Assembly (NCBI GenBank): GCA_049297375.1
Contig: JBAQUF010000007.1
Coordinates: 1 to 34,941, forward strand
Source: Patescibacteria group bacterium
Lineage (GTDB): Bacteria > Patescibacteriota > WWE3 > UBA101185 > UBA10185
Reading direction: 5' to 3'
Length of the DNA: 34,941 nt
The notes beneath the pieces were generated by a model, which ran no database searches, was not told the origin of the DNA, and saw only the letters and a list, made by a program, of their open reading frames with translations. The first letter of the stretch is position 1; every line of letters begins with the position of its first letter. Shown here piece by piece: positions 17,087-32,059 of this stretch. The translations under genes were made by a program, and so were the position numbers.

Positions 17087-17105
17087 TAAGTATCTATGAT
17101 TATAT

Positions 17106-17137
17106 TAAAAAGAGGCTCATTTTACGAGCCTCTTTTT
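17106..17137 (-). terminator. rho-independent terminator (symmetric A/T flanks, potentially bidirectional)
   Basis: 8-bp stem agaggctc/gagcctct (17111-17118 with 17126-17133), flanked by aaaa on one side and ttttt on the other. It lies directly after the stop at 17141. Confidence 0.8.
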
Positions 17138-17140
17138 AAG

Positions 17141-17707
17141 TTAACTTGCAAACTGAACTTCAGATCCAGCTTGTTTAAAGCTATCAATCTTATCAATAAA
17201 GAATGTAACTCCATTTCTCCAGTTAACGTAGTTTGGAGGAGTGTATACAGGAGCTATCTTTTCAGGAGTATCAAGTCCTTTTTCAAGATAGTTTTCTTTT
17301 ATACCCTTTGCTACTGTTTCAATAGCTTCATCATATGATTCAAAGTAAATTGCATTATCTCCATATATACCCCATCCAAATGGATTATATGAACCTTCAA
17401 TTAATTTCTTTCCACAAGAAGACTCCATACAAGAAATAGCAGGTAGAAGCTTGTAATCAATATTATACTTATCTGCTACATCAACAAATGTTCCAGCATT
17501 AGCCTTTAGAGGAGATTTAAATTCATCAAAGAACTTCTCTAAAGCTTCTACTCTATCTTTTCTACTTCTTTGTATTTCTCTATCTAGAACGTCTACAGAA
17601 ACCTCATTTTGCTTATTTTTAATAGAAACATTAGAAGCTGCAGTTACAAGGTAAACAAGAACAAAAGGTAATATATTAACTTGTAGTATTAAGCTTTTCT
17701 TAGTCAT
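17141..17707 (-). CDS. secreted/anchored protein with lysozyme- or transglycosylase-like C-terminal domain (paralog of 18653-19450)
   Basis: I prefer the ATG at 17707 (MTKKSLILQVNILPFVLVYLV..., a signal or anchor) to the TTG at 17746. The C-terminal domain carries AISCMESSCGKK, NPFGWGIYGD and YTPP motifs shared with the paralog. Confidence 0.7.
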   Translation of the reverse strand: MTKKSLILQVNILPFVLVYLVTAASNVSIKNKQNEVSVDVLDREIQRSRKDRVEALEKFFDEFKSPLKANAGTFVDVADKYNIDYKLLPAISCMESSCGKKLIEGSYNPFGWGIYGDNAIYFESYDEAIETVAKGIKENYLEKGLDTPEKIAPVYTPPNYVNWRNGVTFFIDKIDSFKQAGSEVQFAS

Positions 17708-21314: not shown

Positions 21315-21444
21315 AGTGATAATTATAATTATATAAATTTATTACCACAATGAATAAGATTATTAAGAAATGTACTTGCTAGGTTGGTTTAATGATTAAC
21401 TATAGCGGATTATGTTTGCAACTTTTTTAATTGTACGTGAGTTA

Positions 21445-21453
21445 TGGTATAAT
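21445..21453 (+). promoter_or_regulatory. extended -10 (TGgTATAAT) for the 155-aa gene
   Basis: TG is at 21445-21446 and TATAAT at 21448-21453, about 55 nt upstream of the SD-preceded ATG at 21509. Confidence 0.5.
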
Positions 21454-21508
21454 AGCCTATAATAATATAAGACATATTGATATCTATTCAAATGATTGGA
21501 GAGAACAA

Positions 21509-21976
21509 ATGGAAAAAATGGAAATTGCTGTGGTTGATTTGGCGAGAAAGGCGCTTGTAGGAATGGTTCATAAGCGCCAGGAGTTGAACCATCATGGGGG
21601 TATAGCTGTTATGTTCGGTCAAAAAACTCTTGTAGATGAGCTTCGCTCGGGAAAGATTACGGACGTACTTTTTCAACCTGTTTTTGAAGTGGACCAAATT
21701 ATGCGGTCTTCTTCTAAGGATCCTAATGTTTTTCATAACTTTCCTATGACCGCTGCAGGCAAGCTTTGGCAGATGGTGCGAACTGGTAGGCCAAGTGGTC
21801 CAGAGGATGTCATTTCTGGAGAACCTGAGTGGGAAGGTGGAGTTATCACTGAGTGGGGGGACTTCTATGTCTTCTTTTCCTTTAGCGGTGGCCCACCAGA
21901 AGAAGATGTAAAGATTGCTCAAGCTGGAATAGCTACATTGCCAGACTATCATGCATGGGTAGCGGCTTTGGGATGA
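21509..21976 (+). CDS. G+C-richer orphan; weak resemblance to GlcG/DUF336 proteins
   Basis: I prefer the ATG at 21509 (GGAGAG 5 nt upstream) to the tracked 21431 start. The C-terminal GGVITEWGDFYVFFSFSGGPPEEDVKIAQAGIA resembles the GG...G.iGvSGg..e.De..A motif of DUF336. A + strand promoter and terminator bracket the gene. Confidence 0.6.
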   Translation: MEKMEIAVVDLARKALVGMVHKRQELNHHGGIAVMFGQKTLVDELRSGKITDVLFQPVFEVDQIMRSSSKDPNVFHNFPMTAAGKLWQMVRTGRPSGPEDVISGEPEWEGGVITEWGDFYVFFSFSGGPPEEDVKIAQAGIATLPDYHAWVAALG

Positions 21977-25927: not shown

Positions 25928-27784
25928 TTACATCAATCGCTTAGATCCACTATTTCTTCTATTCTCTCTCATTCTTTGAGTTGAATTTAAAATCTTTTTC
26001 CTTAACCTTAAGTTGTGTGGTGTAATTTCTAAAAGTTCGTCGTTTTCTAGAAATACTAAACATTGTTCTAGACTCATAATTACCGGTGGAATAAGAGCAA
26101 CAGAAACTCCTTCTCCTGAAGATCTATTGTTAGTTAGTTGTTTTTCTTTACATACGTTTATTTCTAAGTCTTCGTCTCTGCCATTTAAACCTACTATCAT
26201 ACCTTCATACACTCTTTGCTGAGGTGACACAAAAATAGGTCCTTTTGATTGTGCTGCAATCAGCCCATATGGAGCAGTGTTACCTGAAGCAGATGCAATA
26301 AGCACTCCTTTTCTTAGCTTTTGGATTGGAGGCCCCATTTTATCGTATCTTAAAAAGTTTGAGCTCATAATGGCAGTCCCTTTTGACAAGGTAAGTAAAT
26401 TACTTCTTAATCCCAAGATTCCTCTTGTGCTTATCTCATAAACTAAGCGGGTAGATTCACTTGTTAATTCTTCTTGAGATATTAATACTCCACGTCTTTG
26501 ACCAATTTCACTTTTGACATTTCCAACATAATTATTCCCAACATCAATGGTTAGTTCTTCCATTGGTTCCATCTCTACCCCATCTACAAATTTTGTTAGT
26601 ACTGTAGGTCTACCTACACTAAGTTCAAAGTTTTCCCTTCTTAGTGTTTCCAAAAAAACTGATAAGTGTAATTCTCCTCTTCCAGAGATTACAAATATGT
26701 CATCATTTGATTTTTTAAATCTCATTGCTACGTTTGTTTGCATTTCCCGTTCTATTCTTTCTAAAATGTGTCTACTGGTAAAAAACTTCCCTTCCTGACC
26801 CATAAATGGGGATGTATTAGGACTAACAGATATACTTAATGTTGGTTCATCTATCTTGATGGTTGGAAGAGCTTCAGGAGTGGTTGAATCTGCTACAGTG
26901 TCCCCTATCCCTGCATTTTTTATTCCTGTTATAGCAACTATTTCTCCTGATTCAGCACTGTTTACTTCTGTTCTTTTTAAACCTTGATTAATAAATATTT
27001 TCTCAATAACAGTGTCTTCTTTTTCCCCATTTGATTTTAATAAAGTTACAGACATACCTACTTTTGCTATCCCCCTGTGGATTCTTCCTATTGCATACTT
27101 TCCTTTGAAATTATCCCAATCAAGTGTACTTACTAACATTTGGAATGGTGCATCATCGTTTTTAGTAGGAGCTGGGATATGTTTTAATATTTCTTCAAAT
27201 ATAGGTGATAAATCTGAATTAGGATCTGAATCTATTGTGGTTACTGCATCACCAACTATTTCTTTCCAAGATTGTCCGTTTCTTCCTACTGCATAAAGTA
27301 TAGGGAAATCTAGTTGCTCATTAGTTGTTGCTAGTTCTAAAAAGAGATTATCAATTTTCTTTAATGTTTCTGCAATTCTCACGTGTTTTTTATCAATTTT
27401 ATTAATAATTACAATGATTTTTAAACCCATATCAAATGCTTTTTTTAATACAAATTTAGTTTGAGGCATAGGACCTTCTTGAGCATCAACAAGAAGAAGT
27501 GCTCCATCTGCCATATTTAGTATTCTTTCTACTTCTCCACCAAAGTCTGAGTGCCCAGGAGTATCTATTATGTTTATTTTTGTATCTTTATAATTTACAG
27601 ATGTGTTTTTAGCTAAGATTGTTATTCCCCTTTCTCTTTCTTGATCATTTGAATCCATAATGAGACTTTGACTCATAAAAGATTCGTTATCTCTGAATGT
27701 TTTGGATTGCTTTAATAAACCATCAACTAGTGTGGTTTTTCCGTGATCAACATGTGCAATTATTGCTATATTTCTTAAATTCAT
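25928..27784 (-). CDS. typA: translational GTPase TypA/BipA
   Basis: 618 aa with N-terminus MNLRNIAIIAHVDHGKTTLVD, plus DTPGH and NKID motifs. It has an EF-G-like domain layout without domain IV and the BipA C-terminal domain. Confidence 0.93.
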   Translation of the reverse strand: MNLRNIAIIAHVDHGKTTLVDGLLKQSKTFRDNESFMSQSLIMDSNDQERERGITILAKNTSVNYKDTKINIIDTPGHSDFGGEVERILNMADGALLLVDAQEGPMPQTKFVLKKAFDMGLKIIVIINKIDKKHVRIAETLKKIDNLFLELATTNEQLDFPILYAVGRNGQSWKEIVGDAVTTIDSDPNSDLSPIFEEILKHIPAPTKNDDAPFQMLVSTLDWDNFKGKYAIGRIHRGIAKVGMSVTLLKSNGEKEDTVIEKIFINQGLKRTEVNSAESGEIVAITGIKNAGIGDTVADSTTPEALPTIKIDEPTLSISVSPNTSPFMGQEGKFFTSRHILERIEREMQTNVAMRFKKSNDDIFVISGRGELHLSVFLETLRRENFELSVGRPTVLTKFVDGVEMEPMEELTIDVGNNYVGNVKSEIGQRRGVLISQEELTSESTRLVYEISTRGILGLRSNLLTLSKGTAIMSSNFLRYDKMGPPIQKLRKGVLIASASGNTAPYGLIAAQSKGPIFVSPQQRVYEGMIVGLNGRDEDLEINVCKEKQLTNNRSSGEGVSVALIPPVIMSLEQCLVFLENDELLEITPHNLRLRKKILNSTQRMRENRRNSGSKRLM

Positions 27785-27795
27785 GGCAGTTGGTG

Positions 27796-27801
27796 ATTAT
27801 A
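27796..27801 (-). promoter_or_regulatory. -10 box TATAAT 11 nt before the typA ATG, no SD
   Basis: On the - strand: TATAAT, then caccaactgcc, then ATG at 27784. Confidence 0.45.
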
Positions 27802-27855
27802 CATGATATTGATGGAATAACTAATGGTAGATGGTGTTTGTAAAGTAAAAGGTAC

Positions 27856-27941
27856 TGGTGCCCGAGGCGGGAGTCGAACCCGCATGTCCATAAGGACACA
27901 ACATTTTAAGTGTTGCGTGTATGCCATTCCACCACTCGGGC
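27856..27941 (-). tRNA. tRNA-Leu (anticodon TAA), CCA encoded
   Basis: The reverse complement GCCCGAGTGGTGGAATGGCATACACGCAACACTTAAAATGTTGTGTCCTTATGGACATGCGGGTTCGACTCCCGCCTCGGGCACCA has anticodon loop CTTAAAA and a long variable arm. Confidence 0.9.
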
Positions 27942-27945
27942 ATTC

Positions 27946-28021
27946 TGGCGCACCTGGCGGGAATTGAACCCACGACCTTTTCCTTAGAAGGGAACTGCTC
28001 TATCCGCTGAGCTACAGGTGC
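27946..28021 (-). tRNA. tRNA-Arg (anticodon TCT), CCA encoded
   Basis: The reverse complement GCACCTGTAGCTCAGCGGATAGAGCAGTTCCCTTCTAAGGAAAAGGTCGTGGGTTCAATTCCCGCCAGGTGCGCCA has anticodon loop CTTCTAA. It lies 4 nt from tRNA-Leu. Confidence 0.88.
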
Positions 28022-28032
28022 AAGTATCCTCT

Positions 28033-28038
28033 ATTGTA
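28033..28038 (-). promoter_or_regulatory. candidate -10 (TACAAT) for the tRNA-Arg/tRNA-Leu pair
   Basis: On the - strand, TACAAT lies 11 nt upstream of the mature tRNA-Arg 5' end, with AT-rich upstream sequence. Confidence 0.4.
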
Positions 28039-28095
28039 TCTAATTTTATATAATTTTCCATAACTAGACGTTTTTGTAAATGTTATACTGAAAGT

Positions 28096-28268
28096 AACTT
28101 AGAGAAAGGAGACTTATGAAGATAAATACCCTCTTAGGTAATTTGTCCGGTGTATAACCAACAGATCGCTGTCGTCCCATTCTACCCATGGGAAAAAATG
28201 AATCGTGGGGGGTAATGTAATGATTCATTCACCTGAGCAAAGGGTAGTTTATTGCTCAGGTATTTTTA
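28096..28268 (+). ncRNA. candidate transcript unit 1 (unclassified small RNA or leader-like RNA with a 13-codon ORF)
   Basis: Extended -10 TGtTATACT at 28081-28089. AAGGAG followed by ATG at 28116 opens a 13-codon ORF. There are hairpins at 28176-28194 and at 28197-28229. An intrinsic terminator follows (10-bp stem 28231-28240 with 28252-28261, then atttttat). The start coordinate is estimated from the -10 position. Confidence 0.4.
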
Positions 28269-28350
28269 TGCTTCATAAGCCTAATATACAGTCTTTTTAA
28301 TCTACATCTTATAGTTTGACAAGATTTAAATATTATGATATATTTCCTCT

Positions 28351-28631
28351 ACTTAATCTCCACTCAGCCTAAATATAGGCTAATCTCAAGGTGGAAGGTT
28401 AATAGGGGCGTCCTCTATTAATTCTGATCTGTCCCCGCGACCTTAAAAGGAGGAGGAAGAGCCATGAACTGGCCCTAGCGATTCCACTTAGGTCAAATAG
28501 AAAAAAAAACAAAAAAGGTCCGTCTACCATAAACTGAGTTTAAATTATCATCTTAGCTTATGCGGACAAAACAATTTGAGGAGTTCGTAACAAACCAAGA
28601 TAAAAGTAGATTATCTTGGGTTATTTTTTTT
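28351..28631 (+). ncRNA. candidate transcript unit 2 (unclassified structured RNA, ~280 nt)
   Basis: Promoter: TTGACA (28316-28321), 17 nt spacer, TATATT (28339-28344). Several perfect or near-perfect hairpins follow. The terminal 9-bp hairpin (28595-28603 with 28611-28619) is followed by gtta plus eight T. There is no ORF above a few codons. Strand and ends are not proven. Confidence 0.4.
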
Positions 28632-28634
28632 ATG

Positions 28635-29882
28635 CTACTTTCTAGATCTTAAAATCTTCCCTATTTCTTGCTGAGGCATTCTAATCTTTCTTGGTACAGT
28701 TGCTAATGCAAATACTGCGGATGCAGAAAGAATAATACCTGTAGAAATAAAAGATAGACCATACCCCCACTTTTTAACAACAAATCCCAAGAAAATTGGA
28801 CCTATTGTATAAGCTAAATTTCCAGAAAACTGTCCAATACTTACAAGATCGTGTCCTGCTTCATCTAATCTTGTTACATAATCTTCAAACACAGCAAATA
28901 AAAGTATATTTGCAATATCTATAAAAACAGAAGTTAATAAAACTAAACCTAAGATAACAAATATATTATTTGAAATTCCAATCAAAGCTAAAGTAACACC
29001 AGCTAAAATTCCAGCAATGAAGGAAGTTCTTTTCTTTCCTAATGGTTTAAATATATATGGAATAACCCACCCTATAAACATGGTAGGAAGACAGTAAAAA
29101 ACTAAAAAGAGACTTCCCCACTTGCTTTGTTGTCTTAATTGTTCGGCATATAAAACTCCTGTTGACCAAAAAGCTACATCTAAAAGAGTTGTAGTAAATC
29201 CATAAATAACCAGAACCCATATTCTTTTTGTTAAAACCTTTAATATATTTAACTCTTTCCAGAAACTTCTGGGTTTTTCTCCTTCCCCTGCTTCTTTAGC
29301 ATGCTGTCTTCCAAACATTCCTATAAAGAAAAAGAATAATAGTACAGAAGCTGTAGTAAGTATTAAAGATGCATAAAGAGGAAGTTCGGTATTTTTAGTA
29401 AGTAAAAATACAGTAACAGCAGGACCTAACATATAAGAAGCTGATTGAAATATAGTCATGATAGCCCAAGCTTCTGTATTCTTTTGAACAGGTAAAAACC
29501 TATGAACAAAATCAAACTTTGAATAACTTCTAAGTTCGTAGTAAACGGACCACACAACCATAGCAAATACAAAAGGAGCTAAATCTCTTGGCAGGTATAG
29601 GAATATGAGAGGAAAAGCTACTGCAAATATCAACATCCAAATCATAAAGAATACATAGTTTCTTTTGTTGAAAAACTGAGCAATTATAAAATCAAAAAAC
29701 ATTCCAAAGAGAGAAGAAGTAGATAAAACTAGTCCTACAAGAAGTGCATCGTGTAACTTTTCTTGAACGATAACGGGAGCCATGTAAGACATAATTCCAT
29801 CATGAAGAGATACAAGAAAGATAATAAAAGAAAATACAAATAACGGAATATATGCTCTAAACTTTGGAGCAGGGACTTTCAT
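28635..29882 (-). CDS. MFS transporter
   Basis: 415 aa with about 12 TM helices in a 6+6 layout and a charged central loop (RQHAKEAGEGEKPRSFWKE). Confidence 0.8.
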   Translation of the reverse strand: MKVPAPKFRAYIPLFVFSFIIFLVSLHDGIMSYMAPVIVQEKLHDALLVGLVLSTSSLFGMFFDFIIAQFFNKRNYVFFMIWMLIFAVAFPLIFLYLPRDLAPFVFAMVVWSVYYELRSYSKFDFVHRFLPVQKNTEAWAIMTIFQSASYMLGPAVTVFLLTKNTELPLYASLILTTASVLLFFFFIGMFGRQHAKEAGEGEKPRSFWKELNILKVLTKRIWVLVIYGFTTTLLDVAFWSTGVLYAEQLRQQSKWGSLFLVFYCLPTMFIGWVIPYIFKPLGKKRTSFIAGILAGVTLALIGISNNIFVILGLVLLTSVFIDIANILLFAVFEDYVTRLDEAGHDLVSIGQFSGNLAYTIGPIFLGFVVKKWGYGLSFISTGIILSASAVFALATVPRKIRMPQQEIGKILRSRK

Positions 29883-29930
29883 GTAGTAATGATATCAGTT
29901 TAGAAAAAGATAAGGAAATAATTTATATCG

Positions 29931-30809
29931 TTACACCTTTTTACCTATCAGTAAAATATGTCCACTGGTTGCATATGATATGGGATGATTACACATAGAG
30001 TAATGAAGCTTCATCCAATTCTTCCATGCTTGAGGTTTTTTATATAACAAGTTTATTCCTTTTTGAGAGTGAGAACCAAAACCTTCTAATCCAACTCTAT
30101 CTATAATTTCTATTCCAGATCTTTCTACTAAACTATCTAATTCACTTGGTTCAAAGAAATGACAATACGACCTTGTACCATTTCCTGCACTACCTCCAAA
30201 CATATAGTCTTCACCCCTCATCCATAAATCTTCAAAATGTTTTGTCATTGCAATTTCATCGTGATAATACATAGACGCATCTATTACAACTCCGAACTTA
30301 CCCATAACAGATAAGAATATTGGTACTCCCTTCTTAGCCACTCTTTTTAACTCAGAAACAGCAATTTCTCTGTTTTCCTCTCCTTCTACGTGTGAGAGCG
30401 GACCACCTAAACATATTACTGCATCAAATGTATTATCTTTGAATTGAGATAAGTTAGTGATGGAGCCTTCAGTGACTTCCTTAACTTTACTTTTAATCCC
30501 CTGTCTTGATATTTGTCTTTTTGCAATTTCCAGTAATGCAGGGGTGTAGTCTAGTAGTACCATATCATAACCACTTTTAGCTAGGTAAATTGTATATCTA
30601 CCAGGACCTCCACCAGCATCTAAAATTAGTCCCTTCTTTGGTAAATACTTTTTCAGGAAATATAAAGTGGTGTCAAATTCAAGCCTATGAAAAGGATCTT
30701 TAACAAGTCTTTTCCATTCTCTTAAACTTGCTTTTTCATAGAACTTTTTAACAGTTGATTTTTCTTTATGCATAAAAATTGGAGTAGCAGTTGTGTCTGT
30801 CATCCACAT
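29931..30809 (-). CDS. class I SAM-dependent methyltransferase
   Basis: 292 aa with motif I ILDAGGGPGRYTIYLA, acidic post-I residue (LLDY), and motifs II/III FDAVICLGG. Confidence 0.82.
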   Translation of the reverse strand: MWMTDTTATPIFMHKEKSTVKKFYEKASLREWKRLVKDPFHRLEFDTTLYFLKKYLPKKGLILDAGGGPGRYTIYLAKSGYDMVLLDYTPALLEIAKRQISRQGIKSKVKEVTEGSITNLSQFKDNTFDAVICLGGPLSHVEGEENREIAVSELKRVAKKGVPIFLSVMGKFGVVIDASMYYHDEIAMTKHFEDLWMRGEDYMFGGSAGNGTRSYCHFFEPSELDSLVERSGIEIIDRVGLEGFGSHSQKGINLLYKKPQAWKNWMKLHYSMCNHPISYATSGHILLIGKKV

Positions 30810-30947: not shown

Positions 30948-31577
30948 ATGGGTACGTTTAATATCAATGAAGTTGGGTTAGTGTTTGAACTTATTGGAAA
31001 TCTCCAGGGAGATAAAGGAGATGATTGGTTGAGAGAGTTGGGTAAGTTTCTTCAGGGTAGAAACACCTGGGATGGAGTAAGTGATCTCACAACAATTAAT
31101 ATTGGTATATGTGAAGACATCGGAGATTTAATTAAAAAATTTGAGTCTACAGAAGAAATTATGTATCTCAGCTTCAATGGTAATGTTGTGAGGAAAAGAA
31201 TTGCAAGCATTACACCTAGTAAAAAACCATTTCAACTTGATCTGATAACAATAACGCCAGAAGATTTAGGTCTTGGAAGGCATTTTGACTGCTCTGAGTG
31301 GAAGTCTATCTGTGAAGCTGCAGTTAAAAGAGGTTTTATTATTTGTCCAGAAGAGGCTGTACTACAACTTCAAGTAAAATATAGGGGGAAAAATCTGATT
31401 GTTATTACACAGCCAACCTTATCTACTGAACCTGTAGATTACAAAAAACTATGGTTGTACGACGTAGGAGATAATGGGGGCGGACATTGTCGTATAGTTG
31501 CAGCTCCTGAAGAGGGTGTATTAGCCAATTATGCTGAATGTGTATTCGTACGATCTTTCAAGGAGATTGAATCGTAA
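30948..31577 (+). CDS. orphan hypothetical protein, G+C-richer than surroundings
   Basis: I prefer the ATG at 30948 (AGAGAGGA 7 nt upstream) to the tracked TTG at 30867. 209 aa, soluble, no recognised motif. It has its own terminator. Confidence 0.6.
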   Translation: MGTFNINEVGLVFELIGNLQGDKGDDWLRELGKFLQGRNTWDGVSDLTTINIGICEDIGDLIKKFESTEEIMYLSFNGNVVRKRIASITPSKKPFQLDLITITPEDLGLGRHFDCSEWKSICEAAVKRGFIICPEEAVLQLQVKYRGKNLIVITQPTLSTEPVDYKKLWLYDVGDNGGGHCRIVAAPEEGVLANYAECVFVRSFKEIES

Positions 31578-31607
31578 AAATACAAGGTTAGTGTTGAAAA
31601 GCATCTT

Positions 31608-31656
31608 AAAAATCCGCATTTTGCCATTTACTAACAAGACGCGGATTTTTTATTCA
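31608..31656 (+). terminator. rho-independent terminator
   Basis: Stem aaaaatccgc/gcggattttt (31608-17 with 31641-50), a long 23-nt loop, and a T-run. Confidence 0.6.
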
Positions 31657-31695
31657 TTAGTAATATCTCTTGAGTTGGTTGTAACTTTGAACTTC

Positions 31696-31771
31696 TGGAG
31701 CGACGGACCGGATTCGAACCGGCGACCTTCTCCTTGGAAGGGAGACGTTCTACCAACTGAACTACCGTCGC
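31696..31771 (-). tRNA. tRNA-Gly (anticodon TCC), CCA encoded
   Basis: The reverse complement is GCGACGGTAGTTCAGTTGGTAGAACGTCTCCCTTCCAAGGAGAAGGTCGCCGGTTCGAATCCGGTCCGTCGCTCCA. The anticodon loop is CTTCCAA. Confidence 0.92.
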
Positions 31772-31792
31772 AGGAATAAAATAATAGTAGCA

Positions 31793-32059
31793 CTATTCTA
31801 TATCTGAATCGAACTCATCATCAAAGCTTGGTTTATGAGGTTCTTCTATTCCAAAATCATCAAGTCCGTTTTCTAGTTCTGCTATATAGTCAATATCATT
31901 AATCTTAGCTTTTGGTTCCTTCTTCATTCCTAATGCTACCTTTACATCTTCTGGCAACTCTTCTTCTAACTCCTCCTCTTCTTCATGCTCTTGGCTCTTC
32001 TTAATAACTTTCTCTTTCTTTACTATTTTATTTTCTTTCTTTTTGTTTGTTTTTTTCAT
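31793..32059 (-). CDS. small, highly charged protein (basic N-terminus, acidic C-terminus)
   Basis: 88 aa starting MKKTNKKKENKIVKKEK, followed by an EEEEELEEELPED tract and a DDEFDSDIE tail. The low complexity makes the coding status less certain. Confidence 0.45.
   Translation of the reverse strand: MKKTNKKKENKIVKKEKVIKKSQEHEEEEELEEELPEDVKVALGMKKEPKAKINDIDYIAELENGLDDFGIEEPHKPSFDDEFDSDIE

Follow-up and report, generated by a model that had tools for sequence, protein, structure and literature searches.

The spacer at positions 28022-28634 of a 34,941-nucleotide (nt) stretch from a Patescibacteria group bacterium of the WWE3 lineage (GenBank assembly GCA_049297375.1, contig JBAQUF010000007.1; the whole stretch is referred to below as the window) lies between a pair of tRNA genes and the gene of a transporter of the major facilitator superfamily (MFS). 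On balance, the explanation that we favour is that the spacer holds a predicted stand-alone small RNA gene on the + strand, whose one selected feature is a translated open reading frame (ORF) of only four codons, Met-x-Trp-Pro followed by a stop codon, that is, a ribosome-engaging minigene. As judged by comparison of related loci, the spacer as a whole is not one RNA, but a composite of signals that belong to the neighbouring genes, drifting filler and this small + strand unit. We know of no description of a four-codon mini-gene of this kind, a statement that reflects the Rfam results given below and a limited coverage of the literature.

The pattern that defines the mini-ORF, ATG-NNN-TGG-CCN-TAR, occurs once in the window, as compared with an expectation of 0.07 (stated with one mismatch allowed), and by our estimate a spacer of such length would contain the pattern by chance approximately 4e-5 times, corresponding to about 25 bits of pattern. 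Relatives of the locus were collected by means of the MFS protein (50 homologues; one genome locus, 32 metagenome loci and 12 contigs), so that the survey covers MFS-anchored loci only. Within it the mini-ORF is present in seven lineages, the window included, once in each and always at the same place and on the same strand, between the stop codon of the MFS gene and tRNA-Arg, and convergent with the MFS gene. The encoded peptide is Met-Asn-Trp-Pro in L001, L002 and L014 (ATGAACTGGCCTTAA), in L010 (ATGAACTGGCCTTAA) and in L048 (ATGAACTGGCCCTAG), Met-His-Trp-Pro in L003 (ATGCATTGGCCCTAA), Met-Asp-Trp-Pro in L049 (ATGGATTGGCCTTAG) and Met-Glu-Trp-Pro in L056 (ATGGAGTGGCCTTAG). The seven lineages form two clades, one consisting of the window, L001 and L003 (MFS proteins 88-92% identical) and the other of L010, L048, L049 and L056 (83-86%), and MFS identity between the two is approximately 62%. 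Six matches to the same pattern in viral contigs, all phage contigs with a G+C content of 41-48%, lie by eye within longer coding sequence and look like chance occurrences.

The neutral yardstick used here is 69%, the identity of the window to its closest relative, L001 (a candidate division WWE3 metagenome-assembled genome, MAG), at fourfold-degenerate sites in the MFS gene. Measured in this way (Table 1), the conserved parts of the spacer are the promoter of the tRNA pair, the + strand promoter, the Shine-Dalgarno (SD) site with the mini-ORF, and two convergent terminators, and the remainder mostly drifts. The leader that precedes the SD site changes at exactly the neutral rate and cannot be aligned between the clades. 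In an alignment of five lineages, the block formed by the SD site and the mini-ORF is the sole island conserved in all of them, with flanks that are unalignable between clades; in the alignment of clade 2, whose mean column identity is 53%, only the promoter, the SD site and ORF, and the terminator are kept.

Within the mini-ORF the only variable positions are the first and third bases of codon 2 and the third bases of the proline and stop codons. Codon 2 is AAC, CAT, GAT or GAG (Asn, His, Asp or Glu), the proline codon ends in C or T and the stop codon in A or G. The proline codon is thus invariably CCC or CCT, while CCA accounts for 44% of the proline codons in the window. The sequence GGAG stands 4-9 nt upstream of the ATG in every one of the seven lineages, and the base that follows the stop codon is C in six of the seven as compared with 7 of 34 window genes, counts which are not independent, since the lineages fall into two clades. 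The start site does not appear to be buried in structure: its folding is not more stable than that of shuffled sequences in 6/7 lineages (z-scores of the local minimum free energy from -1.1 to +1.6), and the pairing probability of the AUG is 0.04-0.38.

The presence of an SD site can be set against the gene starts in the rest of the window, where counts are rough because the first start codon in each ORF was taken. A -10 box matching at five or more of six positions ends 4-14 nt before the start codon in 15 of 34 genes, with a sharp peak at 6 nt and often with a TG extension, and an SD core (GGAG, GAGG or AGGA) is found upstream of only five of the 34. This pattern suggests that leaderless mRNAs are the rule in this WWE3 lineage, and a unit with a leader of about 100 nt and a consensus SD site is unusual against such a background. 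We infer that the mini-ORF is under selection as a translated frame and not as a helix, because the pattern of conservation is coding-like, the predicted structure at the start site does not exceed chance in six lineages of seven, and an SD site is provided amid mRNAs that mostly look leaderless.

Three other interpretations of the mini-ORF region were considered and rejected. A hairpin that sequesters the SD site and is opened by translation was a by-eye impression in every lineage, and is not borne out by the folding values just given. Frameshifting or readthrough into a longer ORF finds no basis in the sequence after the stop codon, which is short and unconserved between the window and L001. 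For a pseudo-tRNA that would surround the mini-ORF on the - strand, two matches of 10-11 nt to pieces of tRNA were noted, but the tRNA model gives no support at E<=10, and the flanks are not kept in clade 2.

The unit to which the mini-ORF belongs appears to be transcribed from its own promoter, which is the best consensus match of the region (11/12, plus a TG extension), belongs to the extended -10 type that this genome uses itself, and has a 14-mer that is unique in the window. Its general form is (Y)TTATAGT-TTGACA-17-(TGn)TATATT, an arrangement which the window shares with L001, L003, L010, L048 and L049. It is thus carried by six lineages which have the mini-ORF, and it occurs in two more (L013 and L018) which do not. 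The distance from the -35 box to the ATG is 133-157 nt in five of these six lineages and 262 nt in L003, where there is an insertion. At the other end of the unit, comparison of the predicted terminator with that of L001 reveals one compensatory change of an A-T pair to G-C and one change of G-C to G-T, which preserves pairing on the + strand only. A conserved promoter and an intrinsic terminator of its own would make the unit an independent small RNA gene. The MFS gene also has a predicted terminator of its own, so that the two predicted RNAs overlap at their 3' ends; in L001 the equivalent hairpin and T-run have a different sequence. The predicted overlap of the + strand RNA with the MFS 3' untranslated region (UTR) is approximately 125 nt in clade 1, and in clade 2 it is reduced to the shared terminator hairpin.

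Table 1. Features of the spacer and its borders, with identity to L001 where an interval was compared
Feature	Position	Strand	Composition or basis	Identity to L001
tRNA-Leu(UAA)	27856-27941	-	ARAGORN; Rfam tRNA (58.6 and 67.4 bits for the pair with tRNA-Arg)	
tRNA-Arg(UCU), left border	27946-28021	-	ARAGORN; Rfam tRNA	
tRNA promoter block	28022-28061			95%
Predicted promoter of the tRNA pair, within the block	28033-28060	-	TGGAAA-16-TACAAT; consensus scan	
Region A	28062-28307			55% (130 aligned columns; a further 116 columns are gaps)
Candidate unit in region A	28081-28269	+	read from sequence; hairpins by folding	
Its extended -10 box	28081-28089	+	TGtTATACT	
Its GGAG	28108-28111	+		
Its 13-codon ORF	28116-28157	+	MKINTLLGNLSGV, then stop	
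Its 3' end	28231-28261, T-run to 28269	+	three small stems, then hairpin and T-run	
Predicted + promoter	28308-28344	+	CTTATAG, TTGACA (28316-28321), 17 nt, TGaTATATT (-10 hexamer 28339-28344); consensus scan	89%
Leader, interval compared	28345-28447	+		69%
Leader of the predicted RNA	28351-28448	+	about 100 nt; start placed about 7 nt past the -10 box	
Leader hairpin, 5'-proximal	28365-28380	+		
Leader hairpin, window-specific	28399-28421	+		
SD site with mini-ORF, interval compared	28448-28478	+		88%
SD site	28449-28456	+	GGAGGAGG, 7 nt before the ATG	
Mini-ORF	28464-28478	+	ATG AAC TGG CCC TAG (Met-Asn-Trp-Pro-stop), then C	
Stretch after the mini-ORF				51%
Predicted MFS gene terminator	28501-28567	-	hairpin 28518-28567, U-run encoded by 28516-28501; - strand fold	
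Predicted + terminator	28595-28632	+	hairpin 28595-28619, T-run 28620-28632; terminator scan	87%
MFS transporter gene, right border	28635-29882	-	Pfam MFS_1, E 8e-18	
Stems in the spacer	28160-28171, 28180-28197, 28197-28229, 28231-28261, 28365-28380, 28399-28421, 28518-28567, 28589-28625			

Several loci carry further short sequences at the place of the unit. In L003 (4567-4800, - strand of the locus) the leader contains about 120 nt of inserted sequence, with an SD-led ORF of 20 codons (MIVLNKIFTANFFSSFDLRF, then stop) upstream of its Met-His-Trp-Pro mini-ORF. In L013 an SD-led ORF starting (M)IVHK occupies the place equivalent to that of the mini-ORF, and in L018 a small membrane-protein-like ORF (MKKEIFLVAGVTVAVILVV...) lies beside the promoter on the other strand. 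Two tandem copies of a 39-nt unit, cacggtttgaaattcgatgcagcgcactcgagtaagcca, lie in L056 behind the mini-ORF and ahead of the shared terminator (1970-2080, - strand of the locus), and the terminator hairpin's 5' arm forms the start of this repeat. In the window, the 15-mer TCCTCTAyTnnATCT occurs in three copies of 80% identity, possibly by chance: in the region where transcription from the tRNA promoter starts, on the opposite strand (28027-28041), at the presumed start of the + strand RNA (28345-28359) and in the interior of its leader (28411-28425).

The large part of the spacer that lies between the two promoters, region A, carries most of the extra hairpins and one of two G+C-richer patches, and it is unconstrained, lineage-specific filler, with a rate of change not below that of neutral sites and with stems that lack conservation. 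Neither nhmmer nor blastn finds a counterpart of it in any of 56 loci, and the interval measures about 246 bp in the window; the corresponding lengths for L001 and L003 are approximately 130 and 60 nt. The candidate unit that can be read within it is specific to the window and is treated as probably non-functional, because none of its features is found in L001. A decayed gene or mobile element in the spacer was considered as well and rejected: ORF pieces of the gap have no Pfam or PHROG match, and the gap has no blastn match to phages or plasmids. The gene order MFS, tRNA-Arg(UCU), tRNA-Leu(UAA) is retained down to an MFS identity of 43%, and boxes resembling the promoter of the tRNA pair stand upstream of tRNA-Arg in other relatives also. 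The length of the spacer ranges among relatives from 54 to about 620 bp and is 54-300 bp in many, from which it follows that the long spacer is neither ancestral nor obligatory. The best genome match of the MFS gene of the window is in a candidate division WWE3 bacterium MAG (JAAZNV010000007.1), with 93% identity of the protein and approximately 83% identity of the DNA across the gene, which places the organism in the Candidate Phyla Radiation.

The spacer had been singled out in a first-pass annotation as a hairpin-dense gap free of ORFs, and much of that description is accurate. The longest ORF has 54 amino acids, in agreement with the claim that none reaches 60; the G+C-richer patches are real (0.40-0.44 at 28100-28249 and 0.43-0.48 at 28350-28499, as compared with 0.25-0.33 around them); at least eight stems are present; the neighbouring genes from 25928 to 30809 are all on the - strand; and the best promoter (28316-28344) and terminator (28595-28632) signals are on the + strand. 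In a window with a G+C content of 33% and tightly packed genes, the 613 base pairs (bp) between tRNA-Arg(UCU) and the MFS gene do make this spacer an outlier, and it was only slightly overstated that almost every other spacer is below about 130 bp, since the next largest measure 208 and 177 bp and the remainder at most 127 bp. The two 300-nt halves of the gap have fold z-scores of -2.7/-4.0 and -2.8/-3.3 on the +/- strands, where the background of the window has a mean of -0.4 and a standard deviation of 1.5, and the whole gap on the - strand has a z-score of -5.9 (20 shuffles). The gap is thus structured above the window average, yet it is not the extreme of the window, and the terminators supply part of the signal. 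Low values are also found at 17101-17400, a gene end with a terminator hairpin beside a tRNA gene, and at 31501-31800, which contains tRNA-Gly.

Two possibilities that the first-pass annotation had raised, a housekeeping RNA of very divergent sequence (6S, SRP, RNase P or tmRNA) and a large ornate RNA such as ROOL or GOLLD, find no support in the searches. Rfam cmscan of the whole window at gathering thresholds returns six tRNAs and nothing else, and in the homologous spacers of 17 relatives it returns tRNAs alone; among the families checked, T-box, raiA, HEARO and OLE have no match in the window or in these 17 loci. When the threshold is relaxed to E<=10, the interval 27950-28700 yields nothing beyond tRNA-Arg except matches at the level of chance to eukaryotic, viral and plastid models that are unrelated. 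ARAGORN finds no tmRNA in the window and none in the downstream regions of at least 30 relatives. RNAalifold applied to the five lineages finds no shared structure (consensus -1.4 kcal/mol, with zero pairs changed on both sides), and no consensus structure of the leader emerges either from this analysis or from the clade 2 alignment. For the stems, then, neither conservation of the spacer in related genomes nor covariation was found, and region A and the leader are at or below neutral identity. The further suggestion that the gap might contain something new holds to the extent that the small + strand unit is outside the known families; it fails for a single folded RNA that fills the gap. The resemblance to 6S, SRP, RNase P, tmRNA, ROOL, GOLLD, raiA, HEARO or OLE consists in a tRNA-adjacent intergenic site of several hundred bases with many stems. 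The gap differs from these families in its lack of a model match, of sequence conservation and of covariation, and in a core that consists of a translation start and a four-codon ORF.

The mini-ORF is more usefully compared with three kinds of system in which a very short ORF is involved. The first is the leader peptide that regulates by means of ribosome stalling, exemplified by TnaC, by the Erm and Cat leaders and by rli80, a regulatory leader with a 14-amino-acid ORF upstream of hflXr in Listeria (PMC6310831). Features in common are an ORF of very few codons that has a ribosome-binding site to itself (here the invariant GGAG), an RNA that is intrinsically terminated and conserved C-terminal residues. 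The resemblance extends to particular residues in the case of TnaC, a peptide of 24 amino acids which has Trp and Pro immediately before its stop codon, as the mini-ORF does. However, a co-oriented downstream gene is a defining feature of leader peptides, and a target gene on the same strand is absent in all seven lineages, the next gene being convergent; the mini-ORF has a promoter of its own and does not lie within a 5' UTR; and, unlike TnaC, a peptide of four residues is too short to enter the exit tunnel.

The second kind of system is the minigene, known from phage lambda bar and from synthetic constructs (PMC8012679). The form that defines a bar-type minigene, an SD site, an AUG, at most about five sense codons and a stop, is that of the predicted element in the window and in six other lineages. 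The likeness consists in a stand-alone SD-led ORF of few codons which makes no protein, and it includes properties that are linked to drop-off, namely the short length, a strong SD site, an early NGG codon (UGG as the third codon) and an unfavourable context for termination. The bar minigenes differ in that they are phage-borne and are known by their toxicity in Pth-deficient E. coli, whereas the predicted mini-ORF is chromosomal and conserves x-Trp-Pro across two clades of an uncultured phylum. The third kind is the dual-function small RNA, such as SgrS/SgrT, RNAIII/hld and SR1/SR1P, with ORFs of 26-43 amino acids that have an activity of their own and with conserved pairing regions. Like these, the predicted unit would be a separate small RNA gene that has its own promoter and terminator and a short, presumably translated ORF; unlike them, it has an ORF of just four codons, and the rest of its RNA is unconstrained.

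The features of the mini-ORF suggest a possible mode of action. A ribosome that initiates there would form three peptide bonds and then meet a stop codon that has C as its next base, with the P site occupied by Trp-Pro-tRNA. In E. coli, termination is slowed or peptidyl-tRNA drop-off is promoted by each of four features that the mini-ORF shows: NGG as the third codon, a final Pro residue, C as the base behind the stop codon, and very short length. Minigenes and early NGG codons have been reported to cause such drop-off (review, PMC8012679). Slow termination or drop-off at the mini-ORF may thus occur, and the stalled or cycling ribosome might, speculatively, be the signal. The shortness of the ORF means that a terminating ribosome would still cover the SD site and start region. 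The output could be a change in the stability of an RNA antisense to the 3' end of MFS, or in how far that RNA extends at its own 3' end; alternatively, it could be exerted in trans on the ribosome pool, tRNA-Pro or release factor 1. If the convergent MFS mRNA is the target, the effect might pass through the antisense overlap of the 3' ends or through read-through. Put in general form, the tentative proposal, which we hold with more doubt than belief, is that a chromosomal fMet-x-Trp-Pro-stop minigene is selected in a Candidate Phyla Radiation group as a ribosome-engaging regulatory RNA, either a slow-termination or drop-off device or a sensor that responds to a small molecule or to the status of release factor 1 or tRNA-Pro, with the convergent MFS mRNA or the translation apparatus, and not a downstream gene, as its output.

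A number of observations weigh against the reading of the unit as a translated, ribosome-engaging minigene. The seven lineages represent two clades which were all found through the MFS protein, and the element may simply have been inherited at this site. L013 and L018 retain the promoter without a Met-x-Trp-Pro ORF, and the mini-ORF has been lost in the sister lineages L004, L007, L011 and L046, which keep the MFS gene and the tRNAs; because of this loss the element is dispensable and accessory. The ends of the transcript are placed by consensus signals. No co-oriented gene lies downstream of the + terminator in any of the seven lineages, where the convergent MFS gene is found instead, and no alternative pairing of the terminator/antiterminator kind was seen by eye, a dedicated search for alternative structures not having been made. 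The features that suggest slow termination are extrapolated from E. coli, a member of another phylum. Finally, no complementarity of the + strand RNA to the translation start of the MFS gene was found (z -1.4 to +1.5), and a small RNA that pairs with this start was accordingly rejected as a candidate.

Of the competing explanations, the one that survives best, although we consider it unlikely, is an ordinary base-pairing small RNA, acting in cis as an antisense to the MFS 3' UTR or in trans, in which the SD site and mini-ORF would be auxiliary (for instance through ribosome loading that stabilizes the RNA) or would serve as a motif for pairing or for protein binding. An independent promoter and terminator, the 3' overlap in clade 1, a 5'-proximal hairpin present in both clades and several GGA motifs in the RNA of the window are all consistent with such a function. 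The leader drifts neutrally, however, and contains no seed-like conserved block beyond the SD site and the ORF; the substitutions in the 15 nt of the mini-ORF track codon positions; the start of the MFS gene offers no complementarity; and the antisense overlap of clade 2 amounts only to the shared terminator hairpin.

A somewhat less probable explanation is that the gap has no function beyond the signals of its neighbours, being a rearrangement hot spot on the side of the tRNAs which gathers junk, and that the 15 nt of the mini-ORF are a signal of the DNA or of the - strand, such as a protein-binding site, which mimics an ORF. The range of spacer lengths among relatives, the lack of constraint on region A and the leader, and the HNH endonuclease genes and broken tRNA-like copies that have been inserted at the same site in other lineages all fit a hot spot. 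On the other hand, the conserved promoter, the maintenance of SD spacing in 7/7 lineages, the ATG, the TAA or TAG stop and the restriction to CCC or CCT for proline are hard to explain if the sequence is not translated, and the - strand version of the 15 nt, which would lie beyond the MFS terminator, carries no recognizable signal.

It is very improbable that the mini-ORF is what remains of a protein-coding gene, now decayed, which once ran convergent to the MFS gene: other short ORFs do occur beside the same promoter (20 amino acids in L003 and 14-19 in L007, L013 and L018), but the stop immediately after codon 4 has been kept in two clades with only about 62% identity of their MFS proteins while the flanks have been randomized, the read-through sequence is not conserved between the window and L001, and no frame gives a Pfam or PHROG signal. 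The weakest explanation, and one that is largely refuted, is a single large structured non-coding RNA that fills the gap, for which the fold energies relative to shuffles, the G+C-richer patches and the adjoining tRNA genes speak, and against which stand the negative Rfam and tmRNA searches, the absence of a consensus structure or covarying pair, the fact that the hairpin-dense stretches are the least conserved parts of the gap, and spacers of just 54-150 bp in many relatives that retain both flanking genes.

Some further observations concern the surroundings of the spacer. The genes for tRNA-Arg and tRNA-Leu are separated by just 4 nt in the window, and an HNH endonuclease ORF of 158-159 amino acids lies between them in L001 (7820-8299), L002 (5819-6298) and L010 (1818-2294). 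The TypA and DEAD-box helicase genes that come next after the tRNAs in the window are absent at that position in L001. A partial second copy of tRNA-Arg(UCU) with its promoter is present in the spacer of L004 (5378-5516), L005 and L006 and of L022, L024, L026, L028, L036 and L038. This copy extends from the 5' strand of the acceptor through the D arm (in L036 up to the anticodon loop), is called by neither ARAGORN nor Rfam, and is broken by one or two insertions of near-perfect palindromic hairpins such as GATGCTATAGTGCGAAAGCACTATAGCATC. It may represent a pseudo-tRNA into which small hairpin elements have inserted, or else a gene of an unusual type, either split or interrupted by an intron. 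Elsewhere in the window (21431-21976), ORFs of 181 amino acids (+) and 154 amino acids (-) overlap nearly throughout, and either of the two could be the true gene.

The spacer carries a cautionary lesson for the search for structured RNAs: here a hairpin-rich, G+C-richer, tRNA-adjacent stretch is mostly unconstrained, and the density of stems taken alone is misleading. If the proposal of a selected fMet-x-Trp-Pro-stop minigene is true, then the element would be a naturally occurring equivalent, in cells, of the phage bar minigenes, and no shorter ORF that is both conserved and functional is known to us. Its existence would raise the questions of what happens at a stop codon to a tri- or tetrapeptidyl-tRNA whose peptide ends in Trp-Pro, and of the use that the cell makes of such a signal. 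Provided that the mini-ORF is indeed translated and selected, minigenes, which have hitherto been mainly phage curiosities and laboratory constructs, would exist as conserved cellular genes.

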